Positions 9,877 through 27,384 of a stretch of DNA of 31,275 bases are shown piece by piece. The stretch spans positions 1 through 31,275 of the forward strand of contig JBHHXN010000051.1 of the NCBI GenBank assembly GCA_046757025.1, given 5' to 3'. Made by a program: the position numbers and the translations under genes. This DNA comes from a bacterium. GTDB taxonomy: Bacteria; Zhuqueibacterota; Zhuqueibacteria; Oceanimicrobiales; Oceanimicrobiaceae. Each line of letters begins with the position of its first letter. The stretch's first letter is position 1. The notes beneath the pieces were generated by a model, which saw only the letters and a program-made list of their open reading frames with translations, ran no database searches and was not told the origin of the DNA.

Positions 9877-9882
9877 ATTTAG

Positions 9883-9979
9883 ACCTGAACCAAGCGATTC
9901 ATCATCGGCGTGAACACCCACTCTCTAACAAATCGACCCATCTGTGCGAATATGCCGGCTCAAATCGCTCAATTCAGGT
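9883..9979. mobile_element. Possible 97-bp MITE
   Basis: 17-bp imperfect inverted ends (ACCTGAACCAAGCGATT vs revcomp ACCTGAATTGAGCGATT, 14/17), flanked by TAG on both sides. Confidence 0.4.
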
Positions 9980-10060
9980 TAGTGAAACCCAAAAGATAAA
10001 ATGAACATATCAAATGGAATTTAATTGCAATATGTTAGTGGATTTATTGTGTAACTATTC

Positions 10061-10095
10061 AGCTATTGGCATTTAGCTGTTAGCTGTTGGCCATT
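10061..10095 (+). repeat. Left heptamer array (5 units)
   Basis: AGCTATT GGCATTT AGCTGTT AGCTGTT GGCCATT; inverted counterpart of 11698-11739. Confidence 0.8.
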
Positions 10096-10126
10096 GTTCC
10101 TAGCGCGGCGGAGCCGCAAATGTTTA

Positions 10127-10288
10127 AATGACTTGCTTTGTTGTAGTCCAAACCATGGTGCTATTATCAGCCGTCATTAAGCTTCGCTGTCATTGACAGA
10201 GGTGAATTATTGCTGCTGTCTAAAATGACGCCAAAGGCAAATGACCTGATGACTTTATGACGGGTCGTGTCATTCACTTCGCGTCATT
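10127..10288. repeat. Cluster of GTCAT/ATGAC motifs in both orientations
   Basis: Nine occurrences in about 160 bp, several paired as GTCATT-N8-10-GTCATT. Confidence 0.6.
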
Positions 10289-10354
10289 TAGCCATTTTCT
10301 TGTAAAAAAATGCAAAAGTTCAGAAGTAATACTATAAGTTGGTTGCAAACCATG

Positions 10355-11361
10355 TTAGACGTAAGAAATTCAACGATTGAGAAAAGGAATGGATAAATCA
10401 GTAGGTTATATATACATTTTAACATCTCCAAAAACCGATTGTATCAAAATAGGTGGGACGGATTATCCTCCATTAAAAAGAATAAAAGAGATAAACACAA
10501 CTGAACCCTATAAGAGTCTTGGTCCTTGGTCAATAGCTGATTTTCGCCAAGTTAATGATTGGCGAAAAGTTGAACATAATCTGCATTATACATTTAGAAG
10601 CAACTTGGATACGTCAATTGGTCAACAAAAGGAATTATTTCATGTTCCAATTCAAGATGCTTCAAAGAAATTAGATGAAATTGATCCTGAACAAATAGTA
10701 CATAAACCCAAAATAGACAGAATGTTTCAAGATGAGAATTTCTTAAACTATGTTATCAATTTATTTGTCTTTACGGGTTTAATGAATTGGTTAAATCTTC
10801 AAGGTGCGTGGACTTTTGTATTGTTTCCATCAACTTCAGGCGGAAGATATTTCACAATTAATATTGGATCTCATGAAGTGGCATTTAGCACACTTGGAAG
10901 AAAAGATTTAAAACAACAAAATATGATTTTAGTGGACAGATTAATTTTTGATTTTGGGCAGGTCATTAACTGGATAATGAGACATAATGGGACTATTGAA
11001 GTCGATCATTATGCAACAGCATTACCTCGATCGACGTCGATTATATTTGAAGGCTCTTTTGATGATGTGAATGAATTTCTAAGTTTGGATGGAGTGCGAC
11101 GAGCATTAATTGCTTATTGGAATGAAGCGTTGATTAAAATGAAAGAAAAAAATACATCGAGTGTTTATGCAAGATATCACAATTGGAATGCGGTCGCAAA
11201 ATTACATCATCGAATTGAAAATATGGAATAGCTAAAAACGTCTAACATCGCCTGCAGCCGACAGCGGGGCTGTGGATTCTTGGGTCGTTTGGAGCCTATC
11301 GAAAGTTTATTTTTATTAGCAAGTTAAGTGCCCTGAAATCCCGCTGCGGCTGAGGCACGTG
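10355..11361 (+). mobile_element. Integron gene cassette integrated outside an integron
   Basis: Begins G|TTAGACGT (10354-10362), contains one ORF, and ends in an attC whose R'' region ACGTCTAAC (11238-11246) is the exact reverse complement; right junction G|ATAGAT. Confidence 0.88.
10389..11231 (+). CDS. GIY-YIG nuclease family protein (T5orf172/MUG113-like) with uncharacterised C-terminal domain
   Basis: GYIYIL...IKIGGT...KRIKEIN...VEHNLH...KELF; AAAGGA directly before ATG 10389; AT-rich. Confidence 0.85.
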   Translation: MDKSVGYIYILTSPKTDCIKIGGTDYPPLKRIKEINTTEPYKSLGPWSIADFRQVNDWRKVEHNLHYTFRSNLDTSIGQQKELFHVPIQDASKKLDEIDPEQIVHKPKIDRMFQDENFLNYVINLFVFTGLMNWLNLQGAWTFVLFPSTSGGRYFTINIGSHEVAFSTLGRKDLKQQNMILVDRLIFDFGQVINWIMRHNGTIEVDHYATALPRSTSIIFEGSFDDVNEFLSLDGVRRALIAYWNEALIKMKEKNTSSVYARYHNWNAVAKLHHRIENME

Positions 11362-11367
11362 ATAGAT
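11240..11367 (+). other. attC recombination site
   Basis: R'' GTCTAAC. Left arm GCCT[G]CAGCCG[A]CAGCGGG (11250-11268) pairs perfectly with CCCGCTGCGGCTGAGGC (11340-11356) apart from two extra bases. R' reads G|ATAGAT. The left spacer is 4 nt, one shorter than usual. Confidence 0.88.
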
Positions 11368-11739
11368 TTCAGGACTCGGAATATTTGGAAAGTTGGGATT
11401 GCGATCGTTAAACAAGTTTACCGATTAGCAGAATTCCTTCCTGTTCAAGAAAAATATGGCTTAAGAAGTCAGATTTGTCGTTCGGCTGTATCGATACCTT
11501 CAAACATTGCCGAGGGTTGCAGTCGCCGCAGCCAAATAGATTTCAAACGGTTCCCGGAAATGACTTTAGGTTCATCGTTTGAATTCGAAACTCAATTAAT
11601 TATTATTGAAGAACTGTCTATCATCCCATCTGGAGATATCAGAGTAGTTTTGGATCAGTTAAACAAAGAACAAATGATGATAAATAATCTTATCAGCAAG
11701 CTAAAAGCTAAAAGCCAACAGCCAACAGCAAACAACTGA
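11359..11739 (+). CDS. Four-helix bundle protein (23S rRNA IVP / S23 / Avd-like family), possibly decaying
   Basis: EKYGLRSQICRSAVSIPSNIAEG...F..GSSFE.ETQL signature. The current GTG start is created by the cassette junction. Confidence 0.9.
   Translation: MIDFRTRNIWKVGIAIVKQVYRLAEFLPVQEKYGLRSQICRSAVSIPSNIAEGCSRRSQIDFKRFPEMTLGSSFEFETQLIIIEELSIIPSGDIRVVLDQLNKEQMMINNLISKLKAKSQQPTANN
11698..11739 (+). repeat. Right heptamer array (6 units) encoding the C-terminal tail KLKAKSQQPTANN
   Basis: AAGCTAA AAGCTAA AAGCCAA CAGCCAA CAGCAAA CAACTGA. Confidence 0.8.
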
Positions 11740-11782
11740 ACAGTTACTTTATTGTAGTGCAAAACAAATTTGGAGTGAAAAA

Positions 11783-13971: not shown

Positions 13972-14985
13972 TCAATCTAAAATGAACTCCGAAATTTGAT
14001 ATTTAAAACTTGAAATGATTAACTGGTTTTTTGTCCACTGAAAAACCCAGATTAAAAAGGACATAAAGGGTGGAATCAATCCTGACAATAGAGCGATAAA
14101 TAATTTATTGCCCATCAAAAAAGACCACAAATTGAGCTCAGAGAAAATCACAATTGGAATGACTACTAAATAATAACAAACAATAAACGGCACAATATTG
14201 ATTAACAATCTCCTTTTTGGAGACAAATAATCTGCGGGGTTCTTTATATCCAGAATCAGATATTCCAGAATTTCAGCCCTTTCCTCAATTAGCTCCTTAA
14301 ACCTTACTGGATTCTCTTCCGCAAATTTTCTTAGTTCTGAAAGGTGACTTATAACGCCATTCAGCCTGTATTTGATGATTCTTAAAATATGCGGCGTAAT
14401 CTCACAATTCGGACTGGTTAAAAGTTTGTCGCCTTTTTCAAGCTTTTCAAGATTTTCAATGTTCGTTTGGATATGTTGTTCAACATCAGTTTCATGAACA
14501 CCATACATCAATTTTGTTTGCAGGCTCCTTAATCCAACACTACATATATAAATGTTGTAAAGATGTATCGATTTCGCTCTTATTTCGTAGAGTATTCGAT
14601 TCTGCCATTCTTTTATTTCCTGAGATATTAAATCTATTTTTGTATTTAATGCACTTCCTTGATCTTCTTTAGTGAAACGTGCAATATCTTTTGCAATTTT
14701 TGTTATGTCACCTAAGACTCTCATACTATTACTTAAAATCTTACACAAATACAAAAAGTTTTCAAACAAATTCTTCGCTTCACGGTCTAAATTCGACCCT
14801 TCTTGCCCTTGGTGTTCTTTGTTTAAAAATGCTCGCATCCGCCAAACGACCTCTGAAATACACGCAAATAATCTTCCTAATTCCCATACCTGGTAGGTTA
14901 TATCGGGCCGCTCCAATTGTTGAGAAAACAATTCTTTATCTTTTTTAGTTAGAGATATCAAATCCATCGAGCGTTTCCTAAACAT
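13972..14985 (-). CDS. Hypothetical helical protein with two C-terminal TM segments
   Basis: 337-aa AT-rich ORF; hydrophobic LLINIVPFIVCYYLVVIPIVIF and LFIALLSGLIPPFMSFLIWVF. Start may be ATG 14967. Confidence 0.7.
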   Translation of the reverse strand: MFRKRSMDLISLTKKDKELFSQQLERPDITYQVWELGRLFACISEVVWRMRAFLNKEHQGQEGSNLDREAKNLFENFLYLCKILSNSMRVLGDITKIAKDIARFTKEDQGSALNTKIDLISQEIKEWQNRILYEIRAKSIHLYNIYICSVGLRSLQTKLMYGVHETDVEQHIQTNIENLEKLEKGDKLLTSPNCEITPHILRIIKYRLNGVISHLSELRKFAEENPVRFKELIEERAEILEYLILDIKNPADYLSPKRRLLINIVPFIVCYYLVVIPIVIFSELNLWSFLMGNKLFIALLSGLIPPFMSFLIWVFQWTKNQLIISSFKYQISEFILD

Positions 14986-15069
14986 TCTTTTTTAGATACC
15001 CGACCACCGCAAATTTCAGCCACCCTGAACGATTAAAATCATTGAACAAACTTGCGGTTGATTGTTTAA

Positions 15070-15594
15070 TCAAGTCTCACGTTTGAATATTTGAATTTTG
15101 ACCTTTTTGGGGAAAAATAATCTAAATGGCTGATTCAACAATTTTAATACAAAAGGAACAATTAATAGGTCCGTCGCTTTCAATCTTAATTTATTACCTA
15201 TTCTGGCCTCGAGAAAAAAATACTCCTGCTCGTCGTTATCGCTTTTCAAGCCTACTTTATGCTTCTTGATTTTGTTTGATAATTGGATAAGCTGAGAATC
15301 CATAAGTTTTTTATTGACAAACACCTTTATTGGAAATATTTGGGTAGGCATTACCTTGATCTGACCTGAATCTGGAATTATTTTAACTGTAAACATCTTC
15401 TGGTTGTCATCGTTAAGAACGTTTATAGTCGATATTTCATTGATCCAATCAGATTCTTCAACATTCGGTACGGGAAATTGATTGATGAGGATTCTTTTCA
15501 ACTCCTGCGTTTGAGCCACTAATAATTGAGAGACACATAGCAGGAAAACAAATAAACTTGATTTAAACAATGGATAAAAATCCTTATTTATCAT
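15070..15594 (-). CDS. Hypothetical exported protein
   Basis: 174-aa ORF with GGGAG RBS and signal peptide ending LVA|Q; no recognisable family. Confidence 0.6.
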   Translation of the reverse strand: MINKDFYPLFKSSLFVFLLCVSQLLVAQTQELKRILINQFPVPNVEESDWINEISTINVLNDDNQKMFTVKIIPDSGQIKVMPTQIFPIKVFVNKKLMDSQLIQLSNKIKKHKVGLKSDNDEQEYFFLEARIGNKLRLKATDLLIVPFVLKLLNQPFRLFFPKKVKIQIFKRET

Positions 15595-26002: not shown

Positions 26003-26449
26003 TTATTGAATTCTTCTATTACCTTGATCCGCTAACCAATCTAAACCTAATTCGATAAAAATTCTTTGTTTTAGAATATCTAAACCAAACCCGAAACCCT
26101 TTTCAGGCGACCATTGCACCTCGAGGCCAATACCGCTTGAAATGAGCTGAGCCTTCACATCCTGTTGAATTTCGCCACCGGAAAAGACAATAATTGTGGA
26201 AATAGGCGTTCTTTTTGCGTCCTCAATGGTATAAGTTAGTTTTTGATATGCCGTGCCGGAGGTTTGCTGGGTTTTTGCTTCAATCCCGAGTGTTTTCCCC
26301 CTGTACTCAACAACCACATCGATTTTTCTTTTTTGGCCCACAAACCGGCTGCCGACAAAAGGCTCATCGTAAATTCTCATGTCATCTATTTGCCAACTTT
26401 TGATGGCTTCAATAAGAGCGTCTTTAAAACTCTTGCCTGGATTTGCCAT
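26003..26449 (-). CDS. Small PD-(D/E)XK nuclease, putative restriction endonuclease
   Basis: IDVVV...GIEAKTQQTSGTAYQKL (D...ExK); 8 bp downstream of the methylase. Confidence 0.75.
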   Translation of the reverse strand: MANPGKSFKDALIEAIKSWQIDDMRIYDEPFVGSRFVGQKRKIDVVVEYRGKTLGIEAKTQQTSGTAYQKLTYTIEDAKRTPISTIIVFSGGEIQQDVKAQLISSGIGLEVQWSPEKGFGFGLDILKQRIFIELGLDWLADQGNRRIQ

Positions 26450-26457
26450 AACTAGGC

Positions 26458-27384
26458 CTAATAATTTGTAATCAATAATTCGTTAATTTGCCCACGTTTT
26501 TTTGCATTGGAATTTATCATTCTATTTGCTGATACTTTGTGGATGTGATAACCCTGGTACAGACCATTAAAAAATCGATCTTTTGGATTTTCATTAGTTG
26601 GATCGGAATTACTTAACATCACCTTTGCCCGATTCTTTTTATCTAAACAAGCATAAAAACGACTTAACCGTTTCTGCTCCTCATCACCAAATTCAAATTG
26701 TGAATAAGATGTGAAGTTTGAAGTTTGATTCAGCGGTCTGTAAGGTGGATCAAAATAGACAAAAGACTGCGCATCAGCAATATCGTCACAAGCCTCAAAA
26801 TCTGCGCTTTGAATTTGTGCAATTTGTAGCGCTTGCGAAACTTTTAAAATATTGTCTTCATCTAATATTCTGGGATTTTTGTAGCTGCCGAATGGCACGT
26901 TGAATTCGCCATTGCGGTTTAAACGAAACAAGCCGTTGTAACAAGTTTTATTTAAAAAAATCATCTGGGCGGTTCGGACAAGCCATTTATCGGAAAATCG
27001 TTTGTAATTCACTTCCGTACGTTCGGAATTATAACGATCGCGCACTTCATAATAAAACTGTTTGCGCTCAGCCTCGCCAAACGATTTATACCGCCCGGAG
27101 AGTTTATTTAACAACTCCATCAGCGCTGCTGGTTTTTTTTGAATCACCCGGTAAGCGACTATCAGCTCAACATTGATATCGTAAAGATACACAGACTGAA
27201 TTTGGTAATTTTTCACCACATCGAAAAACACCGCACCGCTGCCTAAGAATGGCTCGATATATTTTTTGATCTTACCCTGTTTCAACTCTAGCGGATAAAA
27301 CTTTCGAAATTGCGAAAGCAGTTGAGACTTGCCGCCGGCCCATTTCAGAAAGGGTTTGGCGCCATTTGGGTTCCGCGTGTTCAT
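26458..27384 (-). CDS. Dam-family (D12 class) DNA N6-adenine methyltransferase
   Basis: PFLKWAGGK, EPFLGSGAV, NKTCYNGLFR.N..GEFNVP, DPPY. Confidence 0.95.
   Translation of the reverse strand: MNTRNPNGAKPFLKWAGGKSQLLSQFRKFYPLELKQGKIKKYIEPFLGSGAVFFDVVKNYQIQSVYLYDINVELIVAYRVIQKKPAALMELLNKLSGRYKSFGEAERKQFYYEVRDRYNSERTEVNYKRFSDKWLVRTAQMIFLNKTCYNGLFRLNRNGEFNVPFGSYKNPRILDEDNILKVSQALQIAQIQSADFEACDDIADAQSFVYFDPPYRPLNQTSNFTSYSQFEFGDEEQKRLSRFYACLDKKNRAKVMLSNSDPTNENPKDRFFNGLYQGYHIHKVSANRMINSNAKKRGQINELLITNY

Follow-up and report, generated by a model that had tools for sequence, protein, structure and literature searches.

The window, that is, the whole 31,275-bp stretch of DNA that was analysed, contains a solitary integron-type gene cassette of 1007 bp at 10355..11361 (+ strand), which is part of a nested insertion between a pair of ABC-permease genes. 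In all six relatives that carry both of these genes on one contig, the genes are 69-196 bp apart, as compared to 1906 bp here, and the gap in the window holds a four-helix-bundle unit, a 239-bp repeated element and the cassette. The unit is bordered by a left run of 7-bp repeats (10062..10092, +) and a right, inverted run of 7-bp repeats (11698..11742, +). Its original leader and ATG, which are conserved in the paralogues, lie at 10338..10354 (+), and the four-helix-bundle gene now occupies 11359..11739 (+), where it would start at a GTG from the cassette end. The 239-bp element (10099..10337, +) is non-coding and represents an insertion of its own, with 17 bp between it and the cassette downstream. 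This nesting within a repeat-flanked unit between the ABC genes had been missed by the sequence-only reading of this DNA that preceded the present analysis. In the same intergenic gap, a further short repeat was observed at 9878-9990, with partial copies on contigs C30 and C34. Elsewhere in the window, two low-G+C (34%) minus-strand genes at 13972-15594, with no Pfam family and no attC, are probably another acquired piece. At 26003-27384, a PD-(D/E)XK nuclease gene (PF20472) is located directly behind a putative methyltransferase gene, which we take to be of the Dam type from the way it reads; the two genes likely form a restriction-modification pair.

The 239-bp element is present in 18 full-length copies in the assembly, which are about 99% alike, and it also occurs in relatives. 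It has a G+C hairpin near its left end and an A/T hairpin near its right end, and sister elements of 158-183 bp share both ends with it and have other middles (65 left ends and 53 right ends). As compared to the empty paralogue, no target duplication was seen at the element. Judging from its ends, the element is presumably moved by a single-strand (HUH-type) transposase. As a mobiliser, no long copy with a gene and no partner gene were found; an IS200-type gene on contig C146 was rejected, as its ends differ, and a Y2 transposase search gave no match, controls included. Inspection by eye within 45 bp of 68 right ends of the element revealed no other cassette start of the G|TTAGAC type. At a contig end (G000 C309:3307-3416), an attC-like site is apparently interrupted by the left end of the element.

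The cargo gene of the cassette (10389..11231, +), as characterized by Pfam and a structure model, encodes a protein of 280 aa, or 284 aa from the TTG at 10377. The N-terminus, about 100 residues, is a GIY-YIG domain of the T5orf172/MUG113 type (Pfam PF10544 and PF13455), and the C-terminus is an alpha/beta domain without a Pfam family. The best fold matches of the structure model (pLDDT 88) are HIGLE (Z 7.6, rmsd 2.2, 88 aligned) and Slx1 (Z 6.6); these scores are middling and agree with the Pfam assignment. For the C-terminal half, only a weak fold match to the C-terminal domain of T4 MotA was obtained (Z 5.5, rmsd 4.6, 101 aligned). The cargo is thus a predicted GIY-YIG nuclease. The protein has 438 relatives, and the PADLOC candidate PDC-S57 matches it with 41 bits over 101/212 positions. 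There was no match among the PDB sequences, no family in NCBIfam and, for the model, nothing in Foldseek at E <= 0.001; Atlas yielded leads only (best 0.82), a plasmid collection one distant match (43.5%), and 30 relatives of this genome no match to the cargo gene DNA among the matches listed. The G+C content of the cassette is 35%, as compared to 47% for the genome.

Both junctions of the cassette lie exactly where the sequence-only reading had placed them. The left junction (10354/10355) reads ...CAAACCATG|TTAGACGT, and here the target G is joined to the R' box of the cassette itself (G|TTAGAC; 10354..10362, +). The right junction (11361/11362) reads ...CACGTG|ATAGATTTC, and from its sequence we infer that G|AT at 11361..11363 (+), where the paralogues have GAG or GTG, is the core of an attG target. 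The cassette encodes no transposase, and TG is all that its ends have in common. Since this TG is common to both junctions, the sequence alone places the crossover only within two bases, and the crossover point is placed by the G|TT rule. In silico deletion of 10355-11361 reproduced the restored M-I-D-F start that had been described, and the frame reads on as M-I-D-F-R-T-R-N-I-W. A contig from run X1, possibly the source sample, covers 10309-11353, from the 239-bp element through the left junction, with zero differences, and therefore confirms the left junction. The right junction is not bridged by any contig among the matches listed for the four runs, and none of the listed matches is to an RNA run. 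In runs X1-X3, the contig depth of the cassette was 7.7, 7.1 and 4.9, as compared to 10.6-14.9 for the flanks; the shallower cassette contigs could reflect a mixed population, which contig depth is unable to show.

The attC sites of integron cassettes have an R'' box of the consensus RYYYAAC just behind the gene, complementary to an R' box of the consensus GTTRRRY. In the window, the R'' box GTCTAAC (11240-11246) starts 9 bp past the cargo stop and the complementary GTTAGAC lies at the left junction, with 10354-10362 being the exact 9-bp complement of the R'' region 11238-11246. A GTTRRRY R' box is also given in the literature (PMC10127599). The attC as present is a hybrid of 128 bp (11240..11367, +), with L'' at 11252-11259, L' at 11348-11354 and a hybrid R' box, GATAGAT, at 11361-11367. 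Its bottom strand forms a hairpin in which the L''/L' boxes pair at 7/7 positions and two single bases are bulged, while the R box pairs at 5/7 positions, with a T:T mismatch next to the cut. The folding energy of this bottom-strand hairpin (11240-11367) is -20.5 kcal/mol (z -2.6; 2/200 shuffles as good). At the junction of the circularised piece, the R box is fully paired and the energy reaches -24.8 kcal/mol. The full attC that the sequence-only reading had derived from the circle, with its 9-bp complement and two single bulges, was thereby recovered.

A rule-based attC scan, independent of any family sequence, gave 9 sites in 5.96 Mb, with the window site in the joint top score, and 0 sites in 2.92 Mb of shuffled DNA. 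That an attC covariance model would recognize the site, as had been anticipated from the sequence, was borne out by a covariance model (CM) of our own, built from 15 other attC sites with the window site excluded. The window attC scored 113.4 bits (E 1.7e-29), and the next match in the window 10.4 bits, in a test that is not fully independent, as 3 of the training sites were first found by their likeness to the window site. The stem of the attC family covaries, with changes on both sides in 13/15 pairs (0/500 shuffles as high), and its pairing amounts to 92%, as compared to 33-49% in slid controls. Neither the CM nor the rule-based scan detected a second attC in the 31,275-bp window, and an Rfam search of the window returned no family. 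Thus, 10355-11361 is confirmed as a real integron-type cassette with a real attC.

The empty form of the target can be read from the paralogues. We compared 10 paralogue starts in this genome, after excluding one internal partial match and two pattern matches behind which the sequence is unrelated. In these 10 starts, the leader is continuous with the gene start, with no insert, and the joined flanks of the window align with the paralogue on contig C92 across the junction, with 3 mismatches around it. The concern that uninterrupted copies might have another upstream sequence did not hold, as the paralogues carry the same leader and gene start. At the junction, the empty starts read GAG (ATG AG.) in 9/10 cases, GTG (ATG TG.) in 1/10 and GWT in 0/10, and the sole copy with a T at the junction base is the copy holding the cassette, as the GWT rule predicts. 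The empty allele that had been postulated was thus found in part: the leader joined to the gene exists in the paralogues, but the GAT form was not found in the 10 starts, nor in 21 family genomes (0/21, as compared to 4/21 with the GAG form), in 125 loci or in viral contigs. Likewise, of the proposed GAT insertion site, the present junction does read G|AT, but no empty copy reads GAT; as judged from the present junction, GAT is the putative target. In the contigs of the four runs, no joint of the leader to ATG ATA was found, an absence that is unproven, as contigs drop rare variants. Run joints that skip both insertions were rejected and taken as paralogues, since their leaders differ from the window copy and their sides are short.

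On the right side of the cassette, the in-frame GTG at 11359-11361 opens 126 codons that match PF05635 (100.8 bits) and TIGR02436 (102.8 bits), in agreement with the claim that the target frame survives the insertion. This GTG is the putative new start of the gene, and a GAGG lies only three bases ahead of it. In all uninterrupted copies that were read (9/9), translation from the ATG yields 1-32 aa, and the cassette-bearing copy is the only long open frame among the four-helix-bundle copies checked. The gene had been described as cut off from its original upstream signals, and its upstream region is broken twice, by the 239-bp element and by the cassette. A promoter consensus scan upstream of the cassette found no + strand site, and 5 sites as compared to 7.0 in shuffles. 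GWT has a frequency of 0.069 per bp (about 1 per 14 bp). Since GWT is this common, and a cut after the G of an ATG keeps the frame, landing on the start codon needs no special cause. Among the 21 attCs of this genome, the ends of 6 read GTG or TTG at the cut.

We examined 12 loci with cargo homologues (6 genome and 6 metagenome loci). At locus L072, positions 1048-2020 are 92% identical in DNA to window positions 10354-11367 and start at the same G|TTAGAC, a boundary that the sequence-only reading had proposed to look for in other copies. The likeness ends at the first five bases of R'', and the context is another one, with peptidase-like and transposase-like genes on either side. This cassette is likewise solitary, at a G|TT site. 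It has the same gene and left boundary, but its attC-like tail is shorter and differs from that of the window copy, so that copies of one cassette have apparently exchanged their attC. One protein in its 90% cluster is labelled Deltaproteobacteria. At L037, the homologue lies directly behind an attC, with a second attC upstream, and thus belongs to an array; at L074 and L077, complementary R'/R'' heptamers are found around the homologue gene, and at L075 a hairpin (z -8.5) lies behind it. Together with the L072 copy, these loci agree with the earlier expectation that homologous genes occur as cassettes. The scans found no attC at 5/6 genome loci, and none of the 6 metagenome loci matched in the rule-based scan or with the CM; at the metagenome loci, the case for cassettes comes from boxes read by eye and one fold, and the folds at L072 and L074 are no better than shuffles (z -0.8 and -1.2). 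Not every cargo homologue is a cassette.

No intI is present in the ORF list of the window, as had been stated, and in the assembly (94.8% complete, 374 contigs) the best TIGR02249 match reaches 83 bits, as compared to the cut-off of 265. Matches over the cut-off were found in 14/30 relatives, and in 11/18 within the family. At 3/14 intI loci, attCs of the window's family adjoin intI, so that an integrase gene with similar attCs, which the sequence-only reading had proposed to locate, does exist elsewhere; all three are CM training sites. At the other 11/14 intI loci, no attC of this family was found nearby. The CM detected 21 attCs on 18 contigs in this genome, and matches in 18/18 family genomes, spread over many contigs (1 to 61 each). 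Sixteen contigs of this genome carry a single attC, 8 of them with enough flank to judge. The 21 attCs end in GTT (9), GAT (3) or other trinucleotides (9, including GAA, GTG, GCT and GTA), and G|AT ends were seen in 2/24 attCs at the loci of relatives. Array pieces are represented by 3 attCs on C197 and 2 on C238, and the cassette on C93, one of the 8 contigs with enough flank, was rejected as a second solo cassette, as it follows another attC and is therefore an array piece. The CM misses a second attC family, observed in tandem at C93:1-345, C93:19847-19906 and C173:5842-6248 with little or no coding sequence between the sites, as array pieces with apparently empty cassettes. At G000 C300:3055-3734, an attC is located about 300 bp from a tyrosine recombinase gene in convergent orientation, of which only the 3' part is present before the contig ends.

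The window cassette consists of one CDS and one attC, with no other att site or integrase gene nearby, and so has the composition of a SALIN. It is not a complete integron, being without an adjacent intI and having as its left flank the gene leader common to the empty paralogues instead of an attI, and it is not a CALIN, which has at least two attCs close together. The cassette at G000 C101:1810-2778, with a 268-aa gene, a perfect R'/R'' match, a G|TT end and ordinary genes on both sides, is likely a second clean SALIN. No paralogue giving the empty site was found for the C101 or C93 cassette.

Very probably, the locus arose when an integron integrase inserted a lone cassette directly behind the ATG of a copy of the repeated four-helix-bundle gene, ahead of its second codon, by attC x attG recombination at G|AT, yielding a SALIN. 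This event had also been proposed in the sequence-only reading, and it is supported by the attC model match, by the existence of homologous cassettes and by the paralogues with the same leader and gene start. The bottom-strand attC hairpin of the circular cassette would have been cleaved at AA|C and linked to the double-stranded target immediately behind the G of the ATG, where the window copy would have read ATG ATA instead of the ATG AGA of the paralogues and so become a GWT target. The integrase may have been an IntI of the type found in the family, now unassembled, lost, or present only for a time. Such a reaction would leave the cassette R' on the left and the hybrid attC on the right, and the promoterless cargo would be read from upstream transcription. 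At +6 to +9, where attG hotspots have the motif CRGM, the sequence is TTTC, and the window site is not classed as an attG hotspot; every other sequence feature fits attG insertion. Since excision would need the mismatched attC and a non-attC partner, exact excision is likely rare and the cassette poorly excisable, as far as its sequence indicates. According to the accessible part of one report (PMC12901181), IntI1 excises at unusual sites, and excision of the window cassette therefore need not be zero.

The same cassette and integrase could instead have used a G|AG target, with the T arising later by mutation or by copying from the other hairpin arm. We regard this as unlikely, even though GAG is the form of 9/10 uninterrupted starts, with none reading GAT, and of 4/21 family genomes, with 0/21 reading GAT. 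In its favour, a G-to-T change at the junction base would, from the fold, add one R-box pair, and other attC ends in this genome read GAA, GTG, GCT or GTA, but those odd ends may be products of decay. Moreover, the consensus measured for genomic insertions is GWT, with GNT as the minimal motif for insertion (PMC10127599), and the sole T copy is the copy that was hit, with only two other differences from C92 nearby. It seems distinctly unlikely that the cassette entered G|AG outside the GWT/GNT rule and that the hybrid attC regained the T as a copy from its own hairpin; if such entry were true, the integrases of this uncultured family would be less strict about their targets than those that have been studied, and landing sites would tend to evolve back in the direction of functional attCs.

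Array pieces on C197 and C238, the second attC family upstream of the C93 cassette, and the fact that the CM misses some attC families, so that a site may have been missed, could be taken to mean that an integron or array (CALIN) once stood here and left the cassette as its last trace, or that the leader of the unit is specialised for docking in the manner of an attI. This is very improbable, since the empty paralogue accounts for both flanks base by base, with no room for an attI or attC, and two methods detected no further attC within 31 kb. We rejected the idea that the leader is targeted recurrently, as 121 class genomes have no second cassette there, the 3 other pattern matches all being unrelated sequence; the regions upstream of the relatives' intI are, by eye, unlike the window leader. 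The remnant or docking-site reading is thus largely refuted. It is hardly credible, too, that the arrangement results from repeats having been joined in the assembly, or that a transposase or illegitimate recombination made the insertion instead of an integrase. Three repeat families do meet at the site, in an assembly of 374 contigs whose right junction is unbridged in contigs among the matches listed, but the X1 contig runs without a difference from the 239-bp element across the left junction as far as 11353, and a misjoin would not bring back the sequence of the paralogue base by base. The insert terminates precisely where the integrase would cut its own attC; it encodes no transposase, and its ends have only TG in common. 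Insertion by an integron integrase at G|AT remains our preferred reading.

The route itself is known. In the accessible part of a preprint (bioRxiv 10.1101/2022.09.11.507474), IntI1-3 are shown to bring attC cassettes into genomic GWT sites, which are cut between the G and the W; attG is shown experimentally to be a double-stranded target whose bottom strand is cut by IntI; CRGM at +6 to +9 defines attG hotspots only; and attG-inserted cassettes are expressible near promoters, with occasional excision, notable for two clones. As the mechanism is already published, with natural examples in print, the window case changes no model; the cassette illustrates a known route cleanly in nature and does not represent a new system. 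In the literature searched, from which most subscription papers were absent, we found no report of a cassette in a four-helix-bundle gene. An attC match alone is the basis on which most SALINs are called, whereas here both junctions, the cassette boundary in another organism and the empty target are all readable. The window site is therefore well suited for checking the laboratory attG model against nature, the sole GAT gene start having taken the cassette, and an uncultured family with scattered attCs is a place to measure the arrival of accessory genes by this route.

With regard to the cargo, the N-terminal ~100 residues are like those of T5orf172/MUG113 GIY-YIG proteins, and the fold resembles the nuclease domains of HIGLE and Slx1. 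The likeness to PDC-S57 is confined to the common nuclease half, whereas the C-terminal domain differs and is without a family. As compared to complete integrons and CALINs, the window cassette has the same anatomy, and the same attC family stands beside intI in three relatives, but the window has no intI, no attI and a single attC. Natural single cassettes at secondary sites include dfrA14 in strA (PMC11213556, PMC4500777) and aadB in RSF1010 and pRAY (bioRxiv 10.1101/2022.09.11.507474), as described in the accessible parts of these sources. In these cases, too, a whole cassette with its attC lies outside an integron and the empty form of the site is known; they are resistance cassettes on plasmids, and dfrA14 breaks strA, whereas the window cassette encodes a predicted nuclease, is on a chromosomal contig and leaves the target frame open. 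As far as the accessible text of Loot et al. describes SALINs, the window cassette is like them in having one CDS and one attC, with no attI, second attC or intI nearby, in its insertion after the G of GWT and in its orientation in the sense of the surrounding genes. The accessible part of the preprint gives 3400 SALINs in 2469/21,105 genomes, 1847/2469 with only one (bioRxiv 10.1101/2022.09.11.507474). The SALIN-bearing genomes of Loot et al. mostly carry one SALIN, whereas this genome has 21 attCs on 18 contigs of a fragmented assembly, so that the counts are not comparable one to one. The window event further differs from the SALINs in that part of their account in being natural, in an uncultured organism, with an empty site readable from paralogues in the same genome and with no hotspot motif.
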